Below are positions 4,788-62,381 of a stretch of 64,000 bases of DNA, piece by piece. Within the stretch, counting starts at the first letter, position 1; the number at the start of each line of letters is the position of its first letter. The notes beneath the pieces are model-generated. The model was not told the origin of the DNA, made no database searches, and worked only from the letters and a program-made list of their open reading frames with translations. This DNA comes from an uncultured Clostridia bacterium. GTDB lineage: Bacteria > Bacillota > Clostridia > Christensenellales > UBA1242. The stretch is taken from positions 29,136-93,135 of the forward strand of contig CANBAL010000004.1 of assembly GCA_947366545.1 (NCBI GenBank), given 5' to 3'. Made by a program: the position numbers and the translations under genes.

Positions 4788-4861
4788 GCGGGTGTAGTTC
4801 AGTGGTAGAACACTAGCCTTCCAAGCTGGTTGCGAGGGTCCGATTCCCTTCACCCGCTCCA
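4788..4861 (+). tRNA. tRNA-Gly (anticodon TCC)
   Basis: Hand-folded cloverleaf. The acceptor pairs GCGGGTG with CACCCGC, the anticodon loop is CTTCCAA, the T-loop is present and CCA is encoded. Confidence 0.9.
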
Positions 4862-4864
4862 CGA

Positions 4865-4941
<77 letters not shown>

Positions 4942-4945
4942 ATAT

Positions 4946-5022
4946 GGTGGTCGTAGTTCAGTTGGTAGAACGCCAGATTGTGGCTCTGGAGGTCAAGAGT
5001 TCGATCCTCTTCGATCACCCCA
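4946..5022 (+). tRNA. tRNA-His (anticodon GTG) with encoded G-1
   Basis: The extra 5' G (4946) lies opposite discriminator C. The acceptor pairs GTGGTCG with CGATCAC, the anticodon loop is TTGTGGC and CCA is encoded. Confidence 0.9.
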
Positions 5023-5052
5023 TATTATTTTTAGCGTGGATTCCCATTGTGA

Positions 5053-5128
5053 TGGGGTGTCGCCAAGCGGTAAGGCATTGGACTCTGACTCCAACATTGC
5101 GTAGGTTCGAATCCTACCACCCCAGCCA
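5053..5128 (+). tRNA. tRNA-Gln (anticodon CTG)
   Basis: The acceptor pairs TGGGGTG with CACCCCA, the anticodon stem-loop is TTGGA-CTCTGAC-TCCAA and CCA is encoded. Confidence 0.9.
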
Positions 5129-5208
5129 AGCGAAAAACTGCGTTTGGGCGGGCTTACCTTTGGCAAGACACAACCTTGTAAAAATTCAATAATAGCACCT
5201 CAGCATAT

Positions 5209-5284
5209 GGCCTACTAGCTCAGTTGGTAGAGCACTTGACTTTTAATCAAGGGGTCCCGGGTTCGAGCCCCGGGTAGACCACCA
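5209..5284 (+). tRNA. tRNA-Lys (anticodon TTT)
   Basis: The D-arm is GCTCAGTTGGTAGAGC, the anticodon stem-loop is CTTGA-CTTTTAA-TCAAG and the T-arm is CCGGG-TTCGAGC-CCCGG. The acceptor GGCCTAC/GTAGACC carries a C3-A70 mismatch. Confidence 0.8.
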
Positions 5285-5359
5285 TGGGGTGTCGCCAAGC
5301 GGTAAGGCACAAGATTTTGATTCTTGCATGCGTAGGTTCAAATCCTGCCACCCCAGCCA
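5285..5359 (+). tRNA. tRNA-Gln (anticodon TTG)
   Basis: The acceptor and D-arm match the first tRNA-Gln. The anticodon stem-loop is CAAGA-TTTTGAT-TCTTG and CCA is encoded. It starts at the base right after the CCA of tRNA-Lys. Confidence 0.9.
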
Positions 5360-5429: not shown

Positions 5430-5978
5430 ATGGAACTAACTTTTGAAGATTTTGTACAAATGGAAGAAATAGATAAACAGTACTTCCCTAAGGAAAATAT
5501 TGCACCAGCAAGGGAGTCATTTAAATGGTATTTGGCAGACCCTAATTCTTGTGTTGTGGTAAGAGATAGGGGAAAAGTTGTTGCTTATATAAATATACTT
5601 TCTCTTAAAAAAGATATTTATGACAAGGTGAAATACAACAAGATAAATGAAAGTCAAATTGTAATGGAAGATTTGGAACTTTCTAGTGAAAAATATTATA
5701 ATTATCTATATTTTCCTGTTATTGTGGTGGACAAAAAATATAGAAACTTAAAAACGCTTATGATATTGTTAGAGGCTACTAAAGAAAAAATAGGCCAAGT
5801 GCTAGAAAAGGGTTTTGAAATAAAAGAAGTGATGGTGGACTGCTCCACAAAAGAGGGAACAAAAATATCACAAAGAATTTTAAAATTTAAACCGTTTATG
5901 CCAACCTCGCATAATTCGGTTATACATATCTTAGATGGTAAAAGTTTTATAGAAAATTTGAAATTGGAGAAATTATAA
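5430..5978 (+). CDS. Hypothetical protein, possibly GNAT-fold acetyltransferase
   Basis: The listed ORF 5289-5978 begins inside tRNA-Gln and the terminator. The first ATG after the terminator is 5430 (MELTFEDF...). The segment VIVVDKKYRNLKTLMILLEA weakly resembles GNAT motif A but lacks its glycines. Confidence 0.5.
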   Translation: MELTFEDFVQMEEIDKQYFPKENIAPARESFKWYLADPNSCVVVRDRGKVVAYINILSLKKDIYDKVKYNKINESQIVMEDLELSSEKYYNYLYFPVIVVDKKYRNLKTLMILLEATKEKIGQVLEKGFEIKEVMVDCSTKEGTKISQRILKFKPFMPTSHNSVIHILDGKSFIENLKLEKL

Positions 5979-6894
5979 TGGATTTTAACAAAATATTAGA
6001 AAATAAGGAAAATACATTTAATTCAAAGGGCGAAAATGTGCATATTGACAGCCTTATGATTTATGACAACGGACAGCATTTTGAACATTTTTTTAAACCA
6101 GATGGTTTACACGAAATGAGAAGTATCAGCAAGCTTTTTATAGCCCTTGCTTACGGAATTGCCATAGATAGAGGGATGATTTCTCTTGATGAAAAGGTTT
6201 ATCCGCTTTTAAAAGATTTGGTGGACATTGCTACAAAGGGAAATCTTGAAAAGATAAAGGAGTGGAAGATTAAACATCTTTTAACTTATACTTGTGGCTA
6301 TGCAGAACAGATGTTTTCTGAAAAATTTATCAAAAATGTAAAAGACAACAATCATTTGAATTATGTTTTAAATTACCCTATAACTATGCGGGGGGGGAGA
6401 AGTATACTTACAATAATGCTGATATCTTTTTGCTTTCCGTATACTTTCAAGAAAAGTTTAATGAGAATATCAAAGACTTTATAGTTGGAGAAATCTTTAA
6501 ACCTTTAGGAATAGAGGAATATATTTGGGAAAATTATGGAAAATATTGTCCTGCTGGCACGGGACTATATATTTCACACCATGACCTCTTTAAGGTTGGA
6601 CTTTTAATTTTAAATAAGGGAAATTATGAAGGGCAACAATTAATTTCTAAAAAATATGTTGAAAAGATGTGCTCATGTAGACTAAAAACGCCTTACGCAG
6701 TTAAGCCAGCAAGAGTGTTGCCAAAGGAAGGCGTTGGTTATGTAATGCATATTTCACGAGATGGATACTCATTTAAAGATGGAACAAATGGGCAGTATTT
6801 AATTGTGAATTTCAAGAAAAAACAACTTATCACAATACTTGCAAGCGAAAGTGAAATGAGTTATGTGACCGAAATTTTAAGAGGCGAGATTTAA
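5978..6894 (+). pseudogene. Beta-lactamase-family serine hydrolase, interrupted by a frameshift in a G8 tract
   Basis: ORFs 5978-6484 and 6430-6894 are two halves of one protein. The SxxK motif (SISK) is in the first half. Just after the tract, in the second frame, come GEKYTYNNADIFLL (YxN motif). Adding one G to the run at 6390-6397 joins the frames. Confidence 0.75.
6390..6397 (+). repeat. G8 homopolymer tract inside the serine hydrolase gene
   Basis: The sequence reads directly as atgc-GGGGGGGG-agaag, and this is the frameshift point. Confidence 0.95.
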
Positions 6895-12153: not shown

Positions 12154-13171
12154 TTTATCATTAGAAGAACTGAAAAATTATGTGAATGAAAAGGGGTTGC
12201 CTACTTTTAGAGGCAGTCAAATTTTTGATGCGATTTACAATGGAAAGGCAATTAATGAAATCACAAACCTGCCAAAGCCGTTATTAGAAGAAATTAGCGA
12301 GGAGTACCCTAAATACAAAATTGTAAAAAGATATGAAAGTAAGGACGGCACGAAAAAGTACATAATTGAGTTTTCTGACGGCGAAGTGGTGGAATGCGTG
12401 CTTATGAGTTACAAATATGGCAACACGATTTGTGTTTCCACCCAAGTGGGATGCCGAATGGGTTGTAAGTTTTGTGCCTCTGGACTGAACGGACTTAAAC
12501 GCAATCTATCAAGCGGTGAGATACTTGGACAGGTGCTGCTTGTAAACAAAGATTTGGGTGGCACAGTAAAAGAGCGTAAAATCACCAATATCGTGCTTAT
12601 GGGTAGCGGTGAGCCACTTGACAATTACGACAATGTCATAAAGTTTTTAAGGCTTGTGACAAGCGAAAATGGCTTAAACATAAGTGACCGCAATATCTCG
12701 CTTTCCACCTGCGGGCTTGTGCCAGAAATTTATCGGCTTGCTGACGAAGGGCTTAATATTACTTTAACTATCTCTCTGCACGCACCTAACGACGAGATTA
12801 GGCAAAGAACAATGCCTATTGCAAACAGATATTCTATCAAAGAAATTTTGGATGCTTGCCGAAACTACATAGACAAAACAAAAAGGCGGGTGGCAATCGA
12901 GTATACACTTATAAAGGGTGTAAATGATAGCAAAGTCTGTGCGGAAGAACTTATAAGACTTCTTAAAGGAATGCTATGCCATGTGAACATTATTCCACTT
13001 AATTATGTGAAAGAAAGGGGACTTACTGCTGCTACGCGTAAAGAGGCATATCAATTTGTTGGCCTCTTAGAAAAAGGCGGACTTTCTGCCACCGTGCGCC
13101 GTACCATGGGCGAAGATATTGCAGGCGCCTGCGGGCAACTGAGAAACTCCTACATGAGAGGTGAGGCATGA
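12143..13171 (+). CDS. rlmN: 23S rRNA/tRNA A2503-C2 methyltransferase RlmN (radical SAM)
   Basis: CxxxCxxC motif (CRMGCKFCASG), a C-terminal GxDIxAACGQL-like GEDIAGACGQL, and about 340 aa in length. Confidence 0.9.
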   Translation: MLSDLSLEELKNYVNEKGLPTFRGSQIFDAIYNGKAINEITNLPKPLLEEISEEYPKYKIVKRYESKDGTKKYIIEFSDGEVVECVLMSYKYGNTICVSTQVGCRMGCKFCASGLNGLKRNLSSGEILGQVLLVNKDLGGTVKERKITNIVLMGSGEPLDNYDNVIKFLRLVTSENGLNISDRNISLSTCGLVPEIYRLADEGLNITLTISLHAPNDEIRQRTMPIANRYSIKEILDACRNYIDKTKRRVAIEYTLIKGVNDSKVCAEELIRLLKGMLCHVNIIPLNYVKERGLTAATRKEAYQFVGLLEKGGLSATVRRTMGEDIAGACGQLRNSYMRGEA

Positions 13172-13998
13172 AGGGACTTGTAATAAAAAAGAATGCAGGG
13201 CTTTATGACATTGATACCGGAAAAGAGGTGATAACAATAAAAGCCTCTGGCAATGTAAAAAAACAGGGGCTATATGTAGGAGACAGGGTTGAGTTTGATG
13301 AGGTGATAACAAGCACGCTGGAGCGTAAAAATAAACTTATTCGTCCGCCGCTTGCCAATCTTGACAAACTATTTATCGTTGCGTCTCTTGTCCCAAAGCC
13401 AGATTTTGTTTTAATAGACAAACTTATTGTATACTCCTTAGTAAACGGGATTGAGCCTATTCTTGTTATTAACAAAACAGACATAATGGAGAAGGACTGC
13501 CAAGAAGAAATAAAAAACATATACAAAGACGCAGTAAAGGTGATTTTGGTATCTGCCGAAGAGGGAGAGGTTGAAGAGCTTAAAAATGAAATAAGTGGCA
13601 TCTCTGCCTTTGCGGGACAAAGTGCGGTGGGAAAAAGCTCACTAATCAACGCCTTACTTGGGAAGGAAAAGGCTGAAGTTGGCAGTTTATCAAAAAAGGT
13701 TGAGAGAGGAAAGCAGACCACAAGAATGACCTGTCTATACAAATGTAGTAGCGGGTATATTGCGGATACCGCAGGATTTTCACTGCTTGACGCCACACTT
13801 GTCCTTCCTATATCGCCGCAAGAGTTGGGGCGATATTATCCTGACTTTTTAAAATATTTGCAAAATTGCAAATTCCGCTCTTGTTTACATGAAATTTCTG
13901 GAAATTGTGGTATAATAGAAGGTGTAAACAAAGGCAAGATTAATAGAACAAGATATGAAAGTTATCTAAAAATACTAAGTGAATTAAAAGGAAAATAG
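13168..13998 (+). CDS. rsgA: Ribosome small-subunit-dependent GTPase A
   Basis: Circularly permuted GTPase (NKTD ... GQSAVGKSSLINAL) with a C-terminal zinc motif (CKFRSCLHEISGNCG). Confidence 0.9.
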   Translation: MKGLVIKKNAGLYDIDTGKEVITIKASGNVKKQGLYVGDRVEFDEVITSTLERKNKLIRPPLANLDKLFIVASLVPKPDFVLIDKLIVYSLVNGIEPILVINKTDIMEKDCQEEIKNIYKDAVKVILVSAEEGEVEELKNEISGISAFAGQSAVGKSSLINALLGKEKAEVGSLSKKVERGKQTTRMTCLYKCSSGYIADTAGFSLLDATLVLPISPQELGRYYPDFLKYLQNCKFRSCLHEISGNCGIIEGVNKGKINRTRYESYLKILSELKGK

Positions 13999-13999
13999 G

Positions 14000-14668
14000 A
14001 TGAAAAGAACTAATGTCTATATTTCGGTTTCTACCGACCCGATTGCAGATTATCAGGAAATAGTTGAGTATGCTAAGGAGCTTCAAGGGGAGGCGGACTT
14101 TATACACTGTGATGTTATGGACGGGCTGTTTGTGCCTAAAAAAACCTATGAGCAAACGGTGGTGGAAAGCATTAATCAAAACACACTTACTATGCTTGAT
14201 GTACACCTTATGGTGAAAGAGCCGATGGAACAACTTGAAGGATACATAAGGGCGGGGGCCAACATCTTGACTGTGCATTATGAGGCGTTTGAGGACAAAG
14301 AAGAACTTACAAAAGCACTTAAATATATTCAAAGCAGAGGTGTCCTTGCAGGACTGGCATTCAATCCAAGCACACCTTTTAATGATGTCAAGTTATTCTG
14401 TTATGATATAGATTTACTGCTTGTGATGAGTGTTGAGCCTGGTGCTAGCGGACAAAAAATGCTGCCTAACATAACTTCGCGAATTAAAAATATTGTCGCG
14501 TTTAGGCAGTCGAATGATTTAAATTTTAAAATTGAAGTGGATGGCGGCGTCAACGACGAGAACTCTCAATCACTTATTGATGCGGGGGCTGACATGCTTG
14601 TTAGCGGTAGTTATATTTTTAAGTCAAAGGACAGGTGTGCGGCTATAAAACTTTTGAAAAGGATTTAA
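14000..14668 (+). CDS. rpe: Ribulose-phosphate 3-epimerase
   Basis: 222 aa with motifs HCDVMDG, DVHLMV, MSVEPG and VDGG. Confidence 0.9.
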   Translation: MKRTNVYISVSTDPIADYQEIVEYAKELQGEADFIHCDVMDGLFVPKKTYEQTVVESINQNTLTMLDVHLMVKEPMEQLEGYIRAGANILTVHYEAFEDKEELTKALKYIQSRGVLAGLAFNPSTPFNDVKLFCYDIDLLLVMSVEPGASGQKMLPNITSRIKNIVAFRQSNDLNFKIEVDGGVNDENSQSLIDAGADMLVSGSYIFKSKDRCAAIKLLKRI

Positions 14669-14895
14669 AGAATGATGACATTGCCGCAAAGTACATCAAA
14701 ATAAGAAAATGTTTGGATGCATTGTGCCTTGCCATCGAGTTTTACTGTAAATACACTTGGATAGACATCTTTTATCACTCCGTTGATGGTGTCTATTTTT
14801 TTACGCCCTCTATTTATATTCATTTCAACGGTTGCACCTTTGAGCGCAGATATCTTTTGTTTGACCTCGTCAAGGCCTAGGGTTACCTTTCTCAT
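14665..14895 (-). CDS. veg: Veg family protein (DUF1021)
   Basis: 76 aa. The segment NRGRKKIDTINGVIKDVYPSVFTVKLD closely matches the B. subtilis Veg core (GGRRK...YPSVF). Its stop overlaps the rpe stop. Confidence 0.8.
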   Translation of the reverse strand: MRKVTLGLDEVKQKISALKGATVEMNINRGRKKIDTINGVIKDVYPSVFTVKLDGKAQCIQTFSYFDVLCGNVIIL

Positions 14896-15007
14896 ATAAT
14901 TCTCCTTGATAAAATATTGCCTTCTTAAAAATTTTTAAACATTTAAGTCATATTTGTCCCCCGTGGCGAGTATGATATACCGATATCGCAATGAGAGGGG
15001 GAATAAA

Positions 15008-16522
15008 ATGGCATTCGAATCAAACAATTTTAATGTGGTGAAGAAAACCAAGTTACCAAAGAGTGAACTTAGTGTTGAATGCAACATCGCTTGCCAAATG
15101 GCAAAAATCCTTACTGTTTCCACCGTGGCAACCGTGGTTAGCAGCGAGGTGCTTAGTGGCAGCATCAATTATGCAGGCAACATTGATGTGAGAATTGTCT
15201 ATATGACAGAGGACGGGGAGATTGGAAGTGTATCTTCAGCATGTCCTTTCACATCTAAATTTGAGGGCGACTATATTACAAGTGGGCAAAAAGCAATCAT
15301 AAGTGTAAAAGTGATTGATAGCCAGATAGAGAATGTTGGCACTGACAATGTGCGCCTTGTATGCAATGTTGAGCAGTCCGGCGTCCTTATTTCTAATCAA
15401 GAAATTCATTCTATTGCATCGAGCGATCCCGATGTTTGCACAAAAACCGAAGAAATAGAGGTGATTAGATTTGTTGGTGAGGCAACCGAAAGCAGCGAGA
15501 TAAAGAGTGAACTTCTTGTAAGAGAGCCTGTTAAAAAACTCATTCTAACAGAAAGCCAAGCACTTATAAAAGGTGTTGAAAGCGGAGTAAACTTTGTTTC
15601 AGTAACTGGAGAAGTGGTAACACGCTTACTTTATCTTACTGAAAATGACAAGTTCGAAACTGGTTATGTCTATGAAAGCTTTAAAGAAGAAATTGAACTT
15701 GAAGGTGCAACAAGGGACAGTCAAGTGGAGGCCTACGCTTTTGTGAAGTGTGACGGCACCAAGACTGAACTTGAAGAAAGCGATAAGGGGCTTAAAATTG
15801 CACTTACTATACCTGTTGTTTTTGCAGTTAAAGCCTATGAGAAAGCAAGCGTGACTGTGATAAAAGACTTATACAGTGTGAATAACGATATCAAGGTGTC
15901 AACAGAATCCTTTGATATGAGTGTAGTTTGCCCTATGGAACTCGTTGAAGGCAAAATTGACGGCTCACTCACACTTGACGAAGATAAGCCAAGGGTAGAC
16001 AAAATAATGTTTGTTGGCGGAAACAATGTTGTTGTAAGCAACAGCTATATTAAAGACGGCGAGATTGTTATTGAAGGAATTGCCTCTACAAGTGTAGTTT
16101 ATCTTAATGACGAGCTTGGGTCTTTCAACAGCGTGCAAATTGATGTGCCTTTTGTAATCACCGATAAGTTTAATTATGAAAATATTGAAGGTATTTTAAA
16201 TGTTGACGCGGTTGTATGCGATGTGGATGTTGTTGTGAAGAAGGGTAGAGAATTCTATTATGACGCCAAAGTGAAAGCGACCGTCAACTACTGTCATCCA
16301 GAGGTGTCGGGTGTTATTACAAACGCTGAAGCACTTGAAGCATATCCTGAAAAAGATTATGGCATGGAACTTATCTTTGCCCATCTTGGAGAGGATTCTT
16401 GGGACATTGCTAAGGCGGCTCACATTCGTGAAGAACAACTAATTTTACAAAATCCTGAAATTTTATTCCCTTTACAAGAAGATAAAAACCTTGTTCTGTT
16501 TTATCAAAAACAGGCAAATTAA
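15008..16522 (+). CDS. SPOCS/DUF3794-type repeat protein with a C-terminal LysM-like segment (SipL-like spore morphogenetic protein)
   Basis: The ATG at 15008 follows the RBS GAGAGGGGG. The body is repetitive and beta-rich (VxxSxxxGxIxxxGxI type). The C-terminus (LIFAHLGEDSWDIAKAAHIREEQLILQNPE) is LysM-like. Its position beside veg agrees with my recollection of clostridial sipL placement. Confidence 0.5.
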   Translation: MAFESNNFNVVKKTKLPKSELSVECNIACQMAKILTVSTVATVVSSEVLSGSINYAGNIDVRIVYMTEDGEIGSVSSACPFTSKFEGDYITSGQKAIISVKVIDSQIENVGTDNVRLVCNVEQSGVLISNQEIHSIASSDPDVCTKTEEIEVIRFVGEATESSEIKSELLVREPVKKLILTESQALIKGVESGVNFVSVTGEVVTRLLYLTENDKFETGYVYESFKEEIELEGATRDSQVEAYAFVKCDGTKTELEESDKGLKIALTIPVVFAVKAYEKASVTVIKDLYSVNNDIKVSTESFDMSVVCPMELVEGKIDGSLTLDEDKPRVDKIMFVGGNNVVVSNSYIKDGEIVIEGIASTSVVYLNDELGSFNSVQIDVPFVITDKFNYENIEGILNVDAVVCDVDVVVKKGREFYYDAKVKATVNYCHPEVSGVITNAEALEAYPEKDYGMELIFAHLGEDSWDIAKAAHIREEQLILQNPEILFPLQEDKNLVLFYQKQAN

Positions 16523-16525
16523 ATA

Positions 16526-16555
16526 AAAGCCGCACCTTAAGTGCGGCTTTTATTT
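16526..16555 (+). terminator. Intrinsic terminator
   Basis: Hairpin GCCGCAC (16529-16535) / GTGCGGC (16541-16547) followed by a T-run. Confidence 0.8.
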
Positions 16556-16584
16556 AAAAAAATACAAAAAATTGGAAAATACGC

Positions 16585-16612
16585 TTGACTCCCCCCCCCG
16601 TGGTGTTATTAT
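16585..16612 (+). promoter_or_regulatory. Sigma-A promoter whose spacer contains a C9 tract
   Basis: TTGACT (16585-16590), a 16-nt spacer made of C9 plus GTGGTGT (ending in TGt), then TATTAT (16607-16612). The RBS AAGGAG and the ATG at 16635 follow. Confidence 0.6.
16591..16599 (+). repeat. C9 homopolymer tract in a promoter spacer
   Basis: The sequence reads directly as ttgact-CCCCCCCCC-gtgg. Confidence 0.95.
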
Positions 16613-16634
16613 AAAAATATATAAGGAGATACCT

Positions 16635-17387
16635 ATGAAAATTAAAACCGCAAAAATATTAAGCGTATTTTTCTTCCTCATATTTGTTATCGCTCTTCCA
16701 CTTGTATGTACCTTTATTCCATACAGGGAGCCAGTACTTATTGAGGCGTCTTTTAATATAGCACCTGCTGAGGGGACAAGTGTGGTGGTGTATGGCGAAC
16801 TTTACAATCCTACAATCGTAACGATTGAAGATTTGGAAATTCAAATCAACTTTTATAATGAAAATGATGAGTTTATCACTACAAAAAAAGTTAATGTAAC
16901 TTTGAATGTTGGTGCTGGACAGACAAAAGAGTTTATTGAGACAATAAATGTTGGCACTGTACTTAATGAGCAGTGCCAGTATGGAGTAGGCGATATACTT
17001 TACACCTATACACAACTTTCTTGGTATCTATATTTCTGCATGGGCATTTGTGCTTACTTTATAACCTTCCTATTACTTGGAAAACAAAAATATTACTTTG
17101 AAGTGAATGGACAGAAGGTGGAGGTGTTTGCATCTTCTTACAAATTAGCCCTTATTGTTGACGGGGAGAAGGTGGCTGAAACTACTCAAAGAAAGGGCAT
17201 TATGCTGGACCTTGAATACAAACTTGGCGAAAGTGAAATTAAGGTGGAGTCTAGAAACCCTATAATCCTTCCTGGGCCAAAGGTGACAATCATGGTTGAC
17301 GGCAGCAAGCCTACAATCACAGATACTAAACAACATGGATTTATTAAGATAGAAAGCAAAAAGAAGGAAAATGAAGTCTTGCAGTAG
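16635..17387 (+). CDS. Hypothetical membrane protein
   Basis: The ATG at 16635 follows a good RBS. The listed 16572 start runs through the promoter. There is an N-terminal TM helix (ILSVFFFLIFVIALPLV), a second TM (WYLYFCMGICAYFITFLLLG), and beta-rich soluble segments. I recognise no family. Confidence 0.6.
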   Translation: MKIKTAKILSVFFFLIFVIALPLVCTFIPYREPVLIEASFNIAPAEGTSVVVYGELYNPTIVTIEDLEIQINFYNENDEFITTKKVNVTLNVGAGQTKEFIETINVGTVLNEQCQYGVGDILYTYTQLSWYLYFCMGICAYFITFLLLGKQKYYFEVNGQKVEVFASSYKLALIVDGEKVAETTQRKGIMLDLEYKLGESEIKVESRNPIILPGPKVTIMVDGSKPTITDTKQHGFIKIESKKKENEVLQ

Positions 17388-17470
17388 TGCAAGACTTTTT
17401 TTTCGCATAATTGACATTTTTTTCATGATACCTCTTAAATTTTGGTCAAAAAAAACTTTAAGAGGTTTTT

Positions 17471-18007
17471 ATGAAATACATAATATCAATTTTATCAGTT
17501 GTGGGAATAGCGGTGATTTTGCTTGTATGTGGGCTTTGTCCTTCTGGCGGGCAGGAAGTGGAATATCTACGAATACATATCCGTGCGAACTCAAATTCCG
17601 AGGTCGACCAAGCAGTAAAATACATTGTCAAAGATGCGGTGGTTGAAGCACTTATTCCTATTCTAAGTGATATCCACACCAAAGATGAGGCAGTGAAGGC
17701 TATGGAGAAAAACTTTGATTACATAGAAAGCGTAGCCAACGCAGTTTTAAAAGAGGAAGGCTTTGAATATACTGCCCATGCAAAAATTAATAATGAATAT
17801 TTCCCGCTGCGCACCTATGAGAATAAAAATGGTAGTCTGACCCTTAAAGAAGGCTATTATGACGCCCTCATTTTGGAACTTGGTAGTGGCAATGGCAACA
17901 ACTGGTGGTGTGTTGTTTATCCGGCATTTTGTTTTACCGAAACCAAAAATTTCGACAATATTGTGTATATTTCTAAAATTTGGGAAATACTTAAAAGTGT
18001 AACATAA
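17471..18007 (+). CDS. spoIIR: Stage II sporulation protein R
   Basis: Signal/TM N-terminus, then LRIHIRANSNSEVDQAVKYIVKDAV and NWWCVVYP. Both are SpoIIR hallmarks. Confidence 0.85.
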   Translation: MKYIISILSVVGIAVILLVCGLCPSGGQEVEYLRIHIRANSNSEVDQAVKYIVKDAVVEALIPILSDIHTKDEAVKAMEKNFDYIESVANAVLKEEGFEYTAHAKINNEYFPLRTYENKNGSLTLKEGYYDALILELGSGNGNNWWCVVYPAFCFTETKNFDNIVYISKIWEILKSVT

Positions 18008-18025
18008 ATTTTTTTGGAGGTAAAA

Positions 18026-18706
18026 ATGAAAAAAATACTAATGTTGACACTTTCGATGTTCTTCTGCTTATCGATTGGTTTGATTGCTGTTGGTTTTACA
18101 TATTTTAATAAGCCCACCCCTAGCAGTGACATCGTAGAGACACTAACGAAGGCACAAAATCGTACTGTGCAAACAAAACTTAAGAGATGGGGTTACTATA
18201 AAGGGGCTGTAGACGGCATTTATGGGGCACAAACGAAGGCGGCTGTAAAATTGTTTCAAAAGAAAAATGGTCTTACTGCTGACGGAATTGTTGGCCCTAA
18301 AACGGCTGCCGCACTGGGCATGAGCCTTGGCGGAAGCACTGGTAGCACTCAATCCTCAAGCGACCTTAACCTTCTTGCAAGGTGTGTGTACGCGGAGGCA
18401 AGAGGGGAGCCTTATGCTGGACAGGTTGCTGTTGCTGCGGTGGTGCTTAACCGTGTGAGAAGTGCATCCTTCCCTAACACAATATCAGGGGTTATTTATC
18501 AGCCTTGGGCCTTCACTTCTGTAAATGACGGGCAAATCAACTATACGCCAAACGACAGCGCGTATAAAGCTGCACAAGACGCACTTAATGGTTGGGATCC
18601 AAGTTATGGCTCACTATATTACTATAATGCAAGTACGGCGACAAGCAAATGGATTTATTCAAGAAAAACTGTGGTTACCATAGGTAAACATGTGTTTGCA
18701 ATATAG
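18026..18706 (+). CDS. sleB: Spore cortex-lytic enzyme SleB
   Basis: Signal/TM N-terminus, a PG_binding_1 repeat (VQTKLKRWGYYKGAVDGIYGAQTKAAVKLFQKKNGLTADGIVGPKT) and a Hydrolase_2 domain (ARCVYAEARGEPYAGQVAVAAVVLNRV). ypeB follows. The ATG at 18026 follows GGAGG. Confidence 0.85.
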   Translation: MKKILMLTLSMFFCLSIGLIAVGFTYFNKPTPSSDIVETLTKAQNRTVQTKLKRWGYYKGAVDGIYGAQTKAAVKLFQKKNGLTADGIVGPKTAAALGMSLGGSTGSTQSSSDLNLLARCVYAEARGEPYAGQVAVAAVVLNRVRSASFPNTISGVIYQPWAFTSVNDGQINYTPNDSAYKAAQDALNGWDPSYGSLYYYNASTATSKWIYSRKTVVTIGKHVFAI

Positions 18707-18715
18707 GAGGGCGTC

Positions 18716-20080
18716 ATGACAGAGAAAGAAACGAAAAAACAAAACAAAAAATATAAAGGTGCCGTGATAGGACTTTCCATTGCCACAGGGGTGCTTGCTA
18801 TGGGTACAATAGGTTTTGGTATAGCCTATGGCGTGGTGCAAAACGATGCAAATGAGTATGGCACTAGGCTTGAAAATATATATCAAAAAAACTTCTATGA
18901 CCTAGTTGACAGCGTGAATAACAGCGAAATCAAGTTATCAAAAATACTAAATTCATCAACATCTTCCTATCAAAAGAAACTTTTGACAGAGGTGTCACGA
19001 AACGCAACAGAGGCAGAGGTGAGTATTTCCTCGCTTCCACTTTCACAAGAAGATATCAATGAAAATGTGAGAATGGTGAATCAAATGTCTGGGTATACCT
19101 CCACCCTTGCAGACAAGCTTGCAAAAGGTGGAAGTTTGACGAGCGCGGAAAAGGATACTTTGCAAGACATTTATGACAACATTCTTTCGCTAAAATCACA
19201 ACTAAACAAGTTTGCAAGAAAGATACAGGGCGGATACAACATATTACATAACAGTATGGATATTGAATCTGGAGATTTCTCGACGCAAATGTCACAACTG
19301 CATGATGTGGACATTGAATATCCAACAATGATTTATGACGGGCCTTTCTCAGACTCTGTAACAAATGTTGCGATTAAAGGGCTTAAAGGTGACAGGGTGA
19401 CTAAGGAAAAAGCAAGTGAGGTTATTAACGCTAAATTTAAAAATGTGGTGAATCTTGATTATGAGGGTGAAACCAAGGGTAGATTTGATACCTTTAACTT
19501 TAGACTTAAAAACACCGACGAAGAAATGCTTTATGTGCAGGTATCACAGATAGGAGGACATATACTTACAGTAAGCGGTACTGGGAAAAGTGGAAACGGG
19601 TCGAGCTTACAGGAAGAAGATGCAGAAAAACTTGCTCTTGAATTTGCAAAGGCTAATGGAATTGAAAATCCAGAGGTTGTTTGGAAGGATACTATTGCGG
19701 CAGACGCATACTTTAATATCGCACCTATTCAAGGAGGGGTAGTGCTTTACCCAGACCTTGTGAAGGTGAAAATTGACCTTGATTCGGGTACGGTGGTAGG
19801 GTATGATGCAACAACATACTTTACAAACCATGTATCGCGCAGTTTAGGGGCCTTTAGTGTGAGTCTTGACACGGTAAGAGGCAAGGTGCCAAATCAATTA
19901 ACTATTGTGAGTGAAAGAAGGGTGCTTGCCCCACTTGATTATAACAGGGAGGTTCTTTGTTATGAATTTGAGTGTATTAATAGTGAAGATACCTATTACA
20001 TCTATGTCAATGCAAATACTGGCGATGAAGAAAATATCTTGAAAGTAATAAAAACAGATGATGGAAGTAAATTATTGTAA
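18716..20080 (+). CDS. ypeB: Germination protein YpeB
   Basis: 454 aa with an N-terminal TM and C-terminal PepSY-like repeats. It lies immediately downstream of sleB, the conserved sleB-ypeB operon arrangement. Confidence 0.8.
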   Translation: MTEKETKKQNKKYKGAVIGLSIATGVLAMGTIGFGIAYGVVQNDANEYGTRLENIYQKNFYDLVDSVNNSEIKLSKILNSSTSSYQKKLLTEVSRNATEAEVSISSLPLSQEDINENVRMVNQMSGYTSTLADKLAKGGSLTSAEKDTLQDIYDNILSLKSQLNKFARKIQGGYNILHNSMDIESGDFSTQMSQLHDVDIEYPTMIYDGPFSDSVTNVAIKGLKGDRVTKEKASEVINAKFKNVVNLDYEGETKGRFDTFNFRLKNTDEEMLYVQVSQIGGHILTVSGTGKSGNGSSLQEEDAEKLALEFAKANGIENPEVVWKDTIAADAYFNIAPIQGGVVLYPDLVKVKIDLDSGTVVGYDATTYFTNHVSRSLGAFSVSLDTVRGKVPNQLTIVSERRVLAPLDYNREVLCYEFECINSEDTYYIYVNANTGDEENILKVIKTDDGSKLL

Positions 20081-20084
20081 AACA

Positions 20085-20120
20085 AAAATCCACAGACAAT
20101 GAGTCTGTGGATTTTTTTTG
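20085..20120 (+). terminator. Intrinsic terminator
   Basis: Hairpin ATCCACAGAC (20088-20097) / GTCTGTGGAT (20103-20112) followed by T7. Confidence 0.85.
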
Positions 20121-20179
20121 TCACATAAAATTTAACACGAGGTGCCCGTGCCACTGCTTAAACAAAATTTTTGCAATTT

Positions 20180-20446
20180 TTATTCGGCTGCAAGTGTTTT
20201 GTTGTAAGCATCCAAAACAACAGATTTAATCATTTCTCTTGTTTCGGTATTGATAGGGTGAACAATGTCTTTATAATCGCCCTCTGGTGTCTTTCTTCTT
20301 GGCATTGAAATGAAGAGGCCATCCTGTCCACTTATTACCTTAATGTCATGTACTACAAAGCAGTCGTCAATAGTGATAGATGCCACTGCCTTTAATTTTG
20401 CATCGTCCTTTGTTACGAGTCTTACTCTTGTGTCTGTAATTTTCAA
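20180..20446 (-). CDS. spoVG: Septation/sporulation regulator SpoVG
   Basis: 88 aa. MKITDTRVRLV...LKAVASITIDDCFVVHDIKVI...GLFISMP is nearly the canonical SpoVG sequence. Confidence 0.95.
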   Translation of the reverse strand: MKITDTRVRLVTKDDAKLKAVASITIDDCFVVHDIKVISGQDGLFISMPRRKTPEGDYKDIVHPINTETREMIKSVVLDAYNKTLAAE

Positions 20447-58930: not shown

Positions 58931-59400
58931 ATGAAAACATTAATTATCGTTGATATGCAAAAGGGCTTTATTAATAAAAATAATGAATTTTTAGTAAAAA
59001 ATATCGAAAATTTATTAAAAAATCATAAATTTGATAGAGTTTTTGCAACAAAGTTTGTAAACAACTTAGATAGTCAATATGTAAAATTATTAAATTTTGA
59101 TAGAATGTGTGATGCAAAGTCACAAGAATTTGCTGTGACTTTGCCCGATACTGCGGTGATTTTGGAGAAAACCTCTTATGCCCTGCCAACTGAATTTGTG
59201 GGGGGGGAACAAAGGAGGTTTTCCTCTGTGGCACTGATTATGACGCCTGTGTGCTAGCCATTGCATATCAATTATTTGATAAGGGTATTCAGCCCCGTAT
59301 AATTATGGACTGCACAGGTAGTGCATCAAATAATCCACTTGATAAAAATGAGTTTAAAAAACTTTGCCGAAGAAATTTTGGCGAAAAATCGATAGTATAA
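58931..59400 (+). pseudogene. Isochorismatase/cysteine hydrolase family gene, frameshifted in a G8 tract
   Basis: The N-terminus MKTLIIVDMQKGF is the typical beta1-DxQ pattern. After the tract, the other frame reads TKEVFLCGTDYDACVLAIAYQLFDKGIQPRIIMDCTGS (catalytic Cys motif) and ends at the TAA at 59398-59400. One extra G restores a single ORF. The alternative start is 58916. Confidence 0.75.
59200..59207 (+). repeat. G8 homopolymer tract inside the isochorismatase-family gene
   Basis: The sequence reads directly as tttgt-GGGGGGGG-aacaaagg. Confidence 0.95.
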
Positions 59401-59408
59401 GGACAATT

Positions 59409-60536: not shown

Positions 60537-60998
60537 CTATTCATCACTATTTTTTTGATTTTTAAGGATTTTTAGGGTTGATTTATCTATATTTTCATTA
60601 AGTTTATTAATTGAATTATAAATTTGTGCGCGACTAAGAACCTTTGCAATTGCATTTAAATAAAGGAAAACTGTAGCAATTGTAGTGCTTACTCCAATCA
60701 TTAATAAAATTATTGATGTTATGGCAATTGGACATGCTAATTGAGGTGTCTCTGCATAAGAAATCGCTGTACCTATAAGACAGGAGACGGCGAAAACAAA
60801 AATAAATGCTATTATTAGAATGCTAATTATAAATATAATTCTCAATCTACGAAGAGAATTGACATCATTTGTTTCTAGATTATAATCTGAGTTTTGCGTT
60901 ATTTCAGTTTCATATTCTTTTGTTGAAATAGTTGAAATTATGCAAGTAATAATAGTACACAATAAAGAAAGAAGAAAAAATATATAAAAATTATTCAT
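60537..60998 (-). CDS. Hypothetical small membrane protein (153 aa)
   Basis: Three predicted TM helices and an RBS AAGGAG. It is driven by the C9-containing promoter. I recognise no family. Confidence 0.6.
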   Translation of the reverse strand: MNNFYIFFLLSLLCTIITCIISTISTKEYETEITQNSDYNLETNDVNSLRRLRIIFIISILIIAFIFVFAVSCLIGTAISYAETPQLACPIAITSIILLMIGVSTTIATVFLYLNAIAKVLSRAQIYNSINKLNENIDKSTLKILKNQKNSDE

Positions 60999-61018: not shown

Positions 61019-61045
61019 ATTATACTCGGGGGGGGGAGTTGTCAA
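61019..61045 (-). promoter_or_regulatory. Sigma-A promoter whose spacer contains a C9 tract (minus strand)
   Basis: The minus strand reads TTGACA, then act-CCCCCCCCC-gag, then TATAAT. Both hexamers are perfect but the spacer is only 15 nt. Confidence 0.6.
61028..61036 (-). repeat. C9 (G9 on the plus strand) homopolymer tract in a promoter spacer
   Basis: The plus strand reads directly as tatactc-GGGGGGGGG-agttgtcaa. Confidence 0.95.
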
Positions 61046-61706: not shown

Positions 61707-62381
61707 TTATTTTTTATATTTTCTGTTTACTTCAATTTCACTTATTTCTATATTTTTTGGTACCTGCAATGTAAACAACATTACTTTAGCCATATCTTCT
61801 GGGTCTATCCACGCATTTGGATCGGCTATTTTTTCACCATTATATTTTTCGTTAAATTTGGTGTTCATTCCGCCCGCGTTGAATTGAATTACACGACAAG
61901 GTGTCTTTTTAAGTTCCGCACCAATATTGAGACTTGTTCCTCTTATCGCCCATTTGGAGGTCGTGTAACCGACTTGATTGAGTGGGCCAGATTTTAGACC
62001 TACGGTGGAGCCGACATTGATTATATCAGCCTCGTTGGCTTTGATGAGGTCAAATAATTTACTAATAAGGTACATTGGGGCGATACTATTAACTTTCATA
62101 ACTCTTTCAAGTTCATAGTAGGGAGTGTTGTTGGTGGGTTGAATACATGGCACACCAGCACAGTTTATTAGGGCGTCAAATTTGCTGTATTTTTCTGCTA
62201 TAATTTCGCACGCCTTATTCATAGATTTTTCATTTAATAAATCACATTTAATAAATTCGCAAGGGTAATCGGGTTTTGTTCTGCAAAGGGCTATGACCTC
62301 AAATCCCCCCCCCGCATTGCAGAGTTTGCCGAAGGCCTTGCCAAGGCCATCACTGGCACCAGTTAAAATAATTCTTTTCAT
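61707..62381 (-). CDS. Short-chain dehydrogenase/reductase (SDR)
   Basis: The ATG at 62381 follows AAGGAGAAAAAG. It has the TGASDGLG cofactor motif, NAG and a YTTSK catalytic motif. It contains an in-frame G9 tract that encodes GGG. Confidence 0.8.
   Translation of the reverse strand: MKRIILTGASDGLGKAFGKLCNAGGGFEVIALCRTKPDYPCEFIKCDLLNEKSMNKACEIIAEKYSKFDALINCAGVPCIQPTNNTPYYELERVMKVNSIAPMYLISKLFDLIKANEADIINVGSTVGLKSGPLNQVGYTTSKWAIRGTSLNIGAELKKTPCRVIQFNAGGMNTKFNEKYNGEKIADPNAWIDPEDMAKVMLFTLQVPKNIEISEIEVNRKYKK
62305..62313 (-). repeat. G9 (C9 on the plus strand) homopolymer tract in-frame within the SDR gene
   Basis: The minus strand reads aat gcg ggg ggg gga ttt (NAGGGF), about 23 codons from the start. 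Confidence 0.95.

Follow-up and report, generated by a model that had tools for sequence, protein, structure and literature searches.

A C9 tract in a promoter spacer as a probable phase-variable switch of an FxLYD-domain membrane protein gene in uncultured gut Clostridia

A run of nine cytosines (C9) that separates the -35 and -10 boxes of a sigma-A-type promoter is probably a slipped-strand, promoter-spacer phase-variable locus. This reading is supported by the bimodal lengths of the G/C runs around it, by the recurrence of the same promoter architecture in other genomes and by one-base G differences between orthologous coding tracts. The locus lies in a 64-kb stretch of DNA, the whole of which was analysed and is hereafter called the window, from a lineage of uncultured, spore-forming, low-GC gut Clostridia. 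The nearest genomes are metagenome-assembled genomes (MAGs) labelled as uncultured Firmicutes, Christensenella sp., Eubacteriales or Clostridia, and they come from the gut of mouse, rabbit, ruminants and humans.

Under the proposed mechanism, the C9 run would act as a slippage-prone simple-sequence repeat (SSR) inside a sigma-A-type spacer (TTGACT, 16 nt, TGn-TATTAT). Gain or loss of a C at replication would reset the -35/-10 spacing to 15 nt with C8, 16 nt with C9 and 17 nt with C10, and this shift would step transcription down or up in a manner that is heritable yet reversible. The gene switched in this way would be monocistronic and encode an FxLYD-domain, two-pass membrane protein. The locus itself would be one of a lineage-wide set of G/C tracts of 8-10 nt (a phasome) in low-GC gut Clostridia, with two kinds of site: non-template C runs between the -35 and -10 boxes, preferentially 5' of lipoproteins and small membrane proteins, and sense-strand G runs in coding regions, which would give ON/OFF frames. 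From the comparisons presented below, we infer that the tract in the FxLYD promoter mutates at a high rate and that expression of the gene follows its length.

Control of transcription by homopolymers in the promoter spacer is textbook knowledge for a few pathogens, namely Neisseria, Treponema, Mycoplasma and Bordetella. In spore-forming commensals, DNA inversions have until now been the main explanation given for phase variation. A search of the full-text literature found no report of repeat-mediated phase variation in uncultured gut Clostridia or in Mucispirillum, an absence that does not amount to proof. The mechanism is of a known kind; the host group and the stereotyped C9 module, with its default spacing of 15-16 nt, appear to be new, and the use of the module in Mucispirillum appears to be convergent.

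Promoter anatomy and genomic context

The promoter is found within a 112-nt intergenic region, and the ATG is at position 16635 (Table 1). The original prediction had described a sigma-A-type promoter here, and all of its parts (TTGACT, C9, GTGGTGT, TATTAT and the ATG) are present where they had been placed. The C9 run directly abuts the -35 box, GTGGTGT fills the rest of the spacer (16600-16606), and the coordinates bear out the claim that the tract sets a spacer of 16 nt. The predicted AAGGAG ribosome-binding site (RBS) followed by the ATG was likewise recovered. At the level of sequence, the locus thus has the defining arrangement of the porA and tp0126 systems, a tract that lies between the -35 and -10 boxes and sets their spacing. 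In a promoter scan of 5 kb, the C9 site was among four 10-of-12 matches and was the sole one of the four with a TG. The A/T-rich stretch upstream of the -35 box may be an UP-element-like region, and related C9 promoters share such an A/T-rich context upstream.

Table 1. Features of the C9 promoter and its gene, and further G/C tracts in the window
Feature	Position	Strand	Basis or remarks
Predicted hairpin terminator of the upstream SipL-like sporulation gene (14954-16522)	16519..16557	+	17-bp stem, -23.6 kcal/mol, z -8.2
A/T-rich stretch 5' of the -35 box	16560..16584	+	Read from sequence
-35 hexamer TTGACT, 5/6 match to TTGACA	16585..16590	+	Sequence; kept in closest relative
C9 homopolymer (C on the non-template strand) that opens the 16-nt spacer; proposed slippage-prone switch	16591..16599	+	
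Extended -10: TG (16604-16605), one base, TATTAT (16607-16612)	16604..16612	+	
Predicted transcription start region, 7-9 nt past the -10 box	16619..16621	+	Placed by standard sigma-70-type promoter geometry
RBS AAGGAG, 6 nt 5' of the ATG	16623..16628	+	
CDS, 250 aa: TM1, predicted extracytoplasmic FxLYD/Ig-like beta-sandwich, TM2, C-terminal beta domain	16635..17387	+	
Predicted intrinsic terminator of the FxLYD gene, stem and T-run	17367..17404	+	-20.1 kcal/mol, z -5.9
G8 on the sense strand of a beta-lactamase-family gene (5978-6894) split into two frames	6390..6397	+	
G8 on the sense strand of an isochorismatase-family gene between dnaK and dnaJ, -1 frameshift	59200..59207	+	
Sister promoter TTGACA-ACT-C9-GAG-TATAAT, 15-nt spacer (tract 61028-61036)	61019..61045	-	Sequence
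G9 on the sense strand near the 5' end of an SDR oxidoreductase gene (~62381-61707), encoding GGG, in frame	62305..62313	-	

Strong predicted terminators on both flanks indicate that the FxLYD gene forms a monocistronic unit, which is predicted to be insulated from read-through. No significant structure was predicted in its 5' UTR (z 0.0). A search of the locus against Rfam gave no match above the gathering thresholds, and the sub-threshold matches reflect the hairpin of the upstream terminator alone.

The product and its family

The gene had been predicted to encode a small membrane protein with two transmembrane (TM) helices. Both helices stand, and the length is corrected from 251 to 250 aa. 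No family had been recognised for the product; profile searches now reveal an FxLYD domain and place the protein in a small conserved family. Residues 48-100 match the NCBIfam model NF038353 with 24.5 bits against a curated cut-off of 23 (E 1.8e-5), and a search against Pfam returned no match. It took an exhaustive HMM search to reveal the family; this recovered 19 full-length remote homologues, and the family as a whole comprises about 20 clusters. The alignment shows that some members add a C-terminal zinc ribbon or a SHOCT tail, which suggests that the C-terminus is cytoplasmic. The name of NF038353 proteins denotes a domain of unknown function, whereas far fewer proteins make up the family that combines two TM helices with a second beta domain at the C-terminus.

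The AlphaFold2 (AF2) model reached a pLDDT of 87 with the 19-sequence alignment, compared with 50 when two sequences were used, and it has the beta-sandwich between both TM helices. A Foldseek search of this model against the PDB returned nothing beyond generic Ig-like beta-sandwiches, with E above 1e-3, and offered no functional lead. Taken together, the domain and the predicted topology are those of an envelope protein.

The promoter in relatives of the gene

A word-indexed search of 5.8 billion proteins found a sole homologue, the closest one, with 65% protein identity. Its gene is syntenic, lying between a sipL-like gene and spoIIR. The promoter of this relative keeps the TTGACT and the 38-nt distance from the -35 box to the RBS and continues as CCCTCC-AGTATGA-TATAAT, such that the homopolymer is absent and CCCTCC stands in its place. 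This region can be read in two ways, which fit equally well. If CCCTCC is a simple 3-nt contraction, a 13-nt spacer leads to a perfect TGaTATAAT; if the two promoters are aligned ungapped, with the 38 nt kept, a non-repetitive 16-nt spacer leads to AATAAT. Two distant members of the family have ordinary AT-rich spacers of 17 nt without a tract. The CCCTCC of the closest relative and the AT-rich spacers of the distant members point to the C9 as a lineage-specific acquisition at the FxLYD gene, one that would reproduce a usable spacing.

JGI metagenome contigs were searched for further instances. An exact-pattern scan for the same promoter with tract lengths of 5-15 gave no matches in these contigs, and a profile-based search found no relatives of the FxLYD product in them. 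Exact-protein look-up of the product, Veg, SpoVG, SpoIIR and RNase HII retrieved no contigs of the same strain.

G/C run lengths in the window and its relatives

The window has a G+C content of 39%, and its C/G runs number 143 at length 4, 43 at length 5 and a single one at length 6; none has length 7, and two of length 8 and three of length 9 follow. C runs of nine or more are expected 0.005 times per window from base composition and 0.009 times under a first-order Markov model, and a chance origin of the C9 is excluded. The run is longer than composition predicts, and its length is within the range in which slippage can occur (about 8 nt or more). A and T runs do not go beyond 8 in the window, despite its 61% A+T.

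The same distribution was recovered beyond the window. In 1.2 Mb around rnhB from 80 relatives, C/G runs of lengths 4 to 9 occurred 1379, 219, 17, 1, 3 and 8 times, and none was longer than 9. In 1.9 Mb of low-GC loci, the non-seed tracts (i.e., apart from those that served to find the loci) include 36 of length 6, three of length 7, 12 of length 8, 18 of length 9 and one of length 10. G/C run lengths are bimodal in the window and in its relatives, with a mode of 9 and a deficit at 6-7. The five tracts of 8-9 nt in 64 kb have the abundance and the mode of about 9 that characterize a phasome. There is also a strand bias among the non-seed tracts: about 11 of the promoter tracts have C on the non-template strand versus one with G, and every coding tract has G on the sense strand.

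Other tracts in the window and their changes between relatives

A second C9 promoter in the window, on the opposite strand, precedes an RBS and a gene (60537-60998, minus strand) whose product is a multi-TM protein of 153 aa. This sister module with its C9 is also present in the two closest relatives (loci L003 and L069), where the small membrane protein behind it has no homology to the protein of the window. Tracts of this type tend to be preceded by T and followed by G.

The two G8 tracts of the window interrupt coding frames. Conceptual restoration of G9 at 6390-6397 yields an ORF of 305 aa in the beta-lactamase-family gene and raises its Pfam match (PF00144) from 34 to 54 bits, now spanning the tract. 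The same replacement at 59200-59207 yields an ORF of 156 aa in the isochorismatase-family gene, and its match to PF00857 rises from 17.5 to 49.3 bits, again spanning the tract. Beyond both G8 tracts, the frames are intact and code for the remainder of the respective Pfam domain.

Comparisons with relatives reveal the corresponding differences in natural sequences. The isochorismatase-like gene, frameshifted with G8 in the window, is in frame with G9 in L069 and with G6 in L003. A sigma-like gene is in frame with G9 in locus L005 and frameshifted with G8 in L011. The promoter of an ABC permease has C9 in L190 and C11 in L122, and glycosyltransferase genes of relatives contain in-frame G8 or G9 tracts. 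Thus, the beta-lactamase-like, isochorismatase-like and L005/L011 genes each display the behaviour typical of a phasome, in that a one-base change switches an intact frame ON or OFF. The G8 frameshifts could in principle be homopolymer consensus errors of metagenome assembly. No mutS- or mutL-sized gene is evident in the 64-kb window, a fraction of the genome that is uninformative on mismatch repair.

C9 promoters across species

We scanned the GTDB species representatives, one genome per species, with the pattern TTGAC-N1-4-C9-G-N2-7-TATNAT, which yielded at least 118 loci. By our own estimate, about 26 would be expected by chance under uniform composition and about three if the whole collection had 35% G+C. 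Among the matches listed, 79 promoters are in low-GC loci, mostly from gut Clostridia MAGs; Mucispirillum/Deferribacterales and one Treponema are also carriers, and several genomes have 2-4 C9 promoters each. The sites have a promoter-like context, with a perfect TTGACA and TATAAT and, after a short leader, a strong RBS ahead of an ATG. Among the matches listed, the module is stereotyped as TTGACA-ANT-C9-GNN-TATAAT, and identical 27-mers are found 5' of unrelated genes. A mobile promoter cassette was considered and rejected, since conservation between non-orthologous loci ends with the 27-nt module and does not extend into the flanks. An unrelated promoter (TTGACC-TT-C9-GCATGA-TATACT, in locus L017) drives a lipoprotein. 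In all seven orthologous promoter clusters across species, the tract is exactly C9, as found by a scan that could detect only tracts of nine or more.

The spacers of the C9 promoters are short. Among the matches listed, 32 are 15 nt long, 29 are 16 nt and six are 17 nt, although the pattern admitted these three lengths equally. As a control, a scan was run in which the boxes were unchanged and C5 could be followed by any 5-13 nt. Of the 88 tract-less promoters that it recovered, 52 have the canonical spacer of 17 nt, where the distribution peaks, 16 have one of 16 nt and 10 one of 18 nt, whereas its pure C tracts (four C8, 23 C9 and two C10) give spacers of 14-16 nt and never 17. The C9 module is thus 1-2 nt short of the 17-nt optimum of tract-less promoters. 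With tract spacers at 15-16 nt and the tract-less peak at 17 nt, a single base would therefore shift these promoters across a steep flank of the spacing dependence. The genes behind tract promoters are enriched in N-terminal hydrophobic segments (41% versus 19%, p 2e-5) and in lipoboxes (18% versus 3.7%, p 3e-6).

Alternative explanations

The constancy of the tract raises the question of whether it is a fixed cis-element, whose length is constrained in a special class of promoters, for instance as the site of a poly(C)/poly(G)-binding regulator or as a structural spacer. Such an element would account for the stereotyped module and its identical 27-mers before unrelated genes, for the biased flanks (T before and G after the tract) and for the excess of promoter tracts with C rather than G on the non-template strand; yet tracts of the same length class lie inside coding regions, where there is no promoter factor and where one-base differences have consequences for the frame. 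It would also account for the narrow range of 8-10 nt, but a mode of 9 is a known signature of hypermutable G/C tracts (PMC3401435, PMC7864442). The presence of C9 in all seven orthologous clusters fits a length-constrained element as well; however, in the polyG/C tracts of C. jejuni, whose mode is likewise 9, most mutations of G8 are insertions and most of G11 are deletions (PMC3401435), so that consensus assemblies would almost always report 9. Given such a mutational equilibrium, consensus calling and a scan limited to nine or more, C9 in every cluster is what would be expected. A fixed element is also difficult to reconcile with the absence of the tract from the promoters of the closest relative and of the distant family members, and we regard it as unlikely.

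It is similarly improbable that the tract slips without consequence, as a by-product of a lineage-wide mutational tendency, while TGn-TATTAT drives transcription largely without the -35 box. The TGn does precede the -10 box and may free the promoter partly from the -35 box, thereby damping the effect of spacer length, and for the closest relative a perfect TGaTATAAT at a mere 13 nt from its TTGACT seems to suffice. In the window, however, the -10 box is imperfect (TATTAT) and a near-consensus -35 box stands at a usable 16 nt. Across the clade, the tracts are placed exactly between perfect hexamers, where one base matters, and their enrichment before envelope genes argues for selection on the switch. 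The precise placement between promoter hexamers also speaks against the homopolymer, or its exact length, being a sequencing or assembly error or a random run. The DNA probably comes from a metagenome assembly, errors are common in homopolymers and the two G8 frameshifts could be miscalls; but runs of this kind are expected only 0.005-0.009 times per window, comparably long A/T runs are lacking at 61% A+T, and identical tracts recur at orthologous sites in independent assemblies. That these assemblies come from several assemblers and projects argues against an artefact, which we consider very improbable.

Implications and comparison with known systems

Slipped-strand variation of the promoter spacer, which we prefer for the FxLYD gene, can be extended to the C9 promoters as a whole. 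Tentatively, we propose a possible C9 promoter module that spans phyla: hundreds of sigma-A promoters close to consensus, with boxes held 15-16 nt apart by C9, would serve as stochastic switches, low by default, for genes of lipoproteins and small membrane proteins and, along with sense-strand G8-9 tracts, would make up a large SSR phasome. The carriers of the module in this proposal are Christensenellales-like Clostridia, Mucispirillum/Deferribacterales and some Treponema, and the genes with G8-9 tracts include those of glycosyltransferases, hydrolases and a sigma-like factor. Should the tracts prove hypermutable, the phasome of these abundant commensals would be sizeable and driven by repeats, with envelope proteins, glycosyltransferases and a sigma-like factor among its targets. 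This would bear on how gut commensals resist phages and are recognised by the immune system, and on their heterogeneity at the strain level. Annotation is also affected, since real genes with G8/G9 tracts will have the appearance of pseudogenes in MAGs. The wider pattern is testable directly on existing metagenomic reads by counting tract lengths.

Several known systems share a homopolymer in the promoter region. In Mycoplasma hyorhinis, a promoter poly-A tract switches the vlp surface lipoproteins ON and OFF, and in Bordetella pertussis, a poly-C tract between the BvgA site and the -10 box does the same for the fim-encoded fimbriae; these differ from the present locus in the base, the position of the tract or the dependence on an activator. 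The poly-C of N. meningitidis opc overlaps the -35 box instead of filling the spacer and is a looser parallel. A closer one is porA, where a G/C homopolymer between the -35 and -10 boxes also sets the spacer and the target is also an envelope protein. There, the tract is poly-G, whereas here C is on the non-template strand and abuts the -35 box, and the assembled state has 16 nt. In N. meningitidis porA, transcription decreases step by step once the spacing is shorter than 17 nt, as summarised in PMC7864442. The C. jejuni phasome resembles the present one in its genome-wide G/C tracts with a mode of 9, the scarcity of intermediate lengths and the ON/OFF coding tracts, which affect surface-modification genes and others; it differs in that most of its tracts are intragenic, whereas here a large share lies in promoter spacers as a stereotyped module.

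In T. pallidum, promoter poly-G tracts range from 7 to 11 within isolates and are mostly 9, and the tract of tp0126 lies between the -35 and -10 boxes, with optimal transcription at 17-nt spacing (PMC7864442). The likeness to tp0126 and the tpr family consists in a promoter homopolymer with a mode of 9. The host here belongs to another phylum, and in contrast to the Neisseria host of porA it is of the Gram-positive type, a spore-forming gut Clostridia member. The GTDB scan also found, ahead of a lipoprotein gene in a Treponema MAG (L086), the promoter TTGACA-GTA-C9-GTGG-TATTAT, which has the same design as that of the FxLYD gene.

Recurrence of the C9 promoter module

GTDB scans covering one genome per species (loci L083-L293) revealed that, among the matches listed, a stereotyped promoter module, TTGACA-ANT-C9-GNN-TATAAT, recurs in MAGs of low-GC gut Clostridia and in Mucispirillum/Deferribacterales, with one further instance in a Treponema MAG. 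Among these listed matches, identical 27-mers are found upstream of unrelated genes, and the spacers of the module measure 15-16 nt, as against a peak at 17 nt in tract-less promoters with the same boxes. Outside the main clade, a sugar-ABC-permease promoter of Lachnospiraceae MAGs (~48% GC; L122/L190), TTGACA-Cn-GATAAAT-TATCAT, has a C11 tract in L122 but C9 in the second species, L190, which, judged from the sequences, is an orthologous difference in tract length.

The window itself contains a second promoter with a C9 spacer tract, placed between dnaJ and rnhB (Table). Both this promoter and its C9 tract are conserved in two relatives (L003 9897-9905; L069 7254-7262). The small membrane protein that it drives has 153 aa in the window and 144 aa in both L003 and L069, with no homology between the two versions, a pattern that would fit replacement of the gene under a conserved switch.

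Table. Long G/C tracts of the window additional to that of the FxLYD gene promoter
Feature	Tract or element	Gene	Strand	Basis
Promoter with a C9 spacer tract, TTGACA-ACT-C9-GAG-TATAAT, 15-nt spacer	61019-61045		minus	sequence
G8 tract frameshifting a beta-lactamase-family (serine hydrolase) gene	6390-6397	5978-6894	+	sequence
G8 tract frameshifting an isochorismatase-family gene, between dnaK and dnaJ	59200-59207	~58931-59401	+	sequence
G9 tract (sense strand) in a short-chain dehydrogenase (SDR) gene	62305-62313	~62381-61707	minus	sequence

Tracts within coding regions

A conceptual G9 in place of G8 restores a 305-aa ORF in the beta-lactamase-family gene, and the PF00144 match then spans the tract. 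The isochorismatase-family gene of the window retains an intact frame downstream of its G8, and its counterparts are in frame with G9 in L069 and with G6 in L003. In the SDR gene, a candidate ON-state contingency gene, the G9 lies ~23 codons in, codes for Gly-Gly-Gly and is in frame in the window's assembly. Among the relatives, a sigma-70-like gene whose product is extended by a long C-terminal segment, and which could be a phase-variable regulator, has an in-frame G9 in L005 (16091-16099) and a frameshifted G8 in L011 (13638-13645). In-frame G8 or G9 tracts also occur in their genes for family-2 glycosyltransferases (L013 7233-7240, L018 14981-14988 and L016 3873-3881), classical targets in surface-glycan phase variation.

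Across the window and loci L003-L293, promoter tracts place C on the non-template strand by ~11 to 1 (counted on tracts other than the scan seeds), and the base directly 3' of the C run is usually G. Coding tracts have G on the sense strand in all cases, thereby yielding Gly rather than Pro codons.

Gene neighborhood and other features

The FxLYD gene lies in a conserved sporulation and cell-envelope region (13168-20446: rsgA, rpe, veg, sipL-like, the FxLYD gene, spoIIR, sleB-like, ypeB and spoVG, followed by mur/ddl), across which the closest relative, L002, is syntenic with the window. Elsewhere, six tRNA genes (Gly-tcc, Arg-tct, His-gtg, Gln-ctg, Lys-ttt and Gln-ttg) are clustered at 4788-5359; the ORFs mechanically called across this stretch are spurious.
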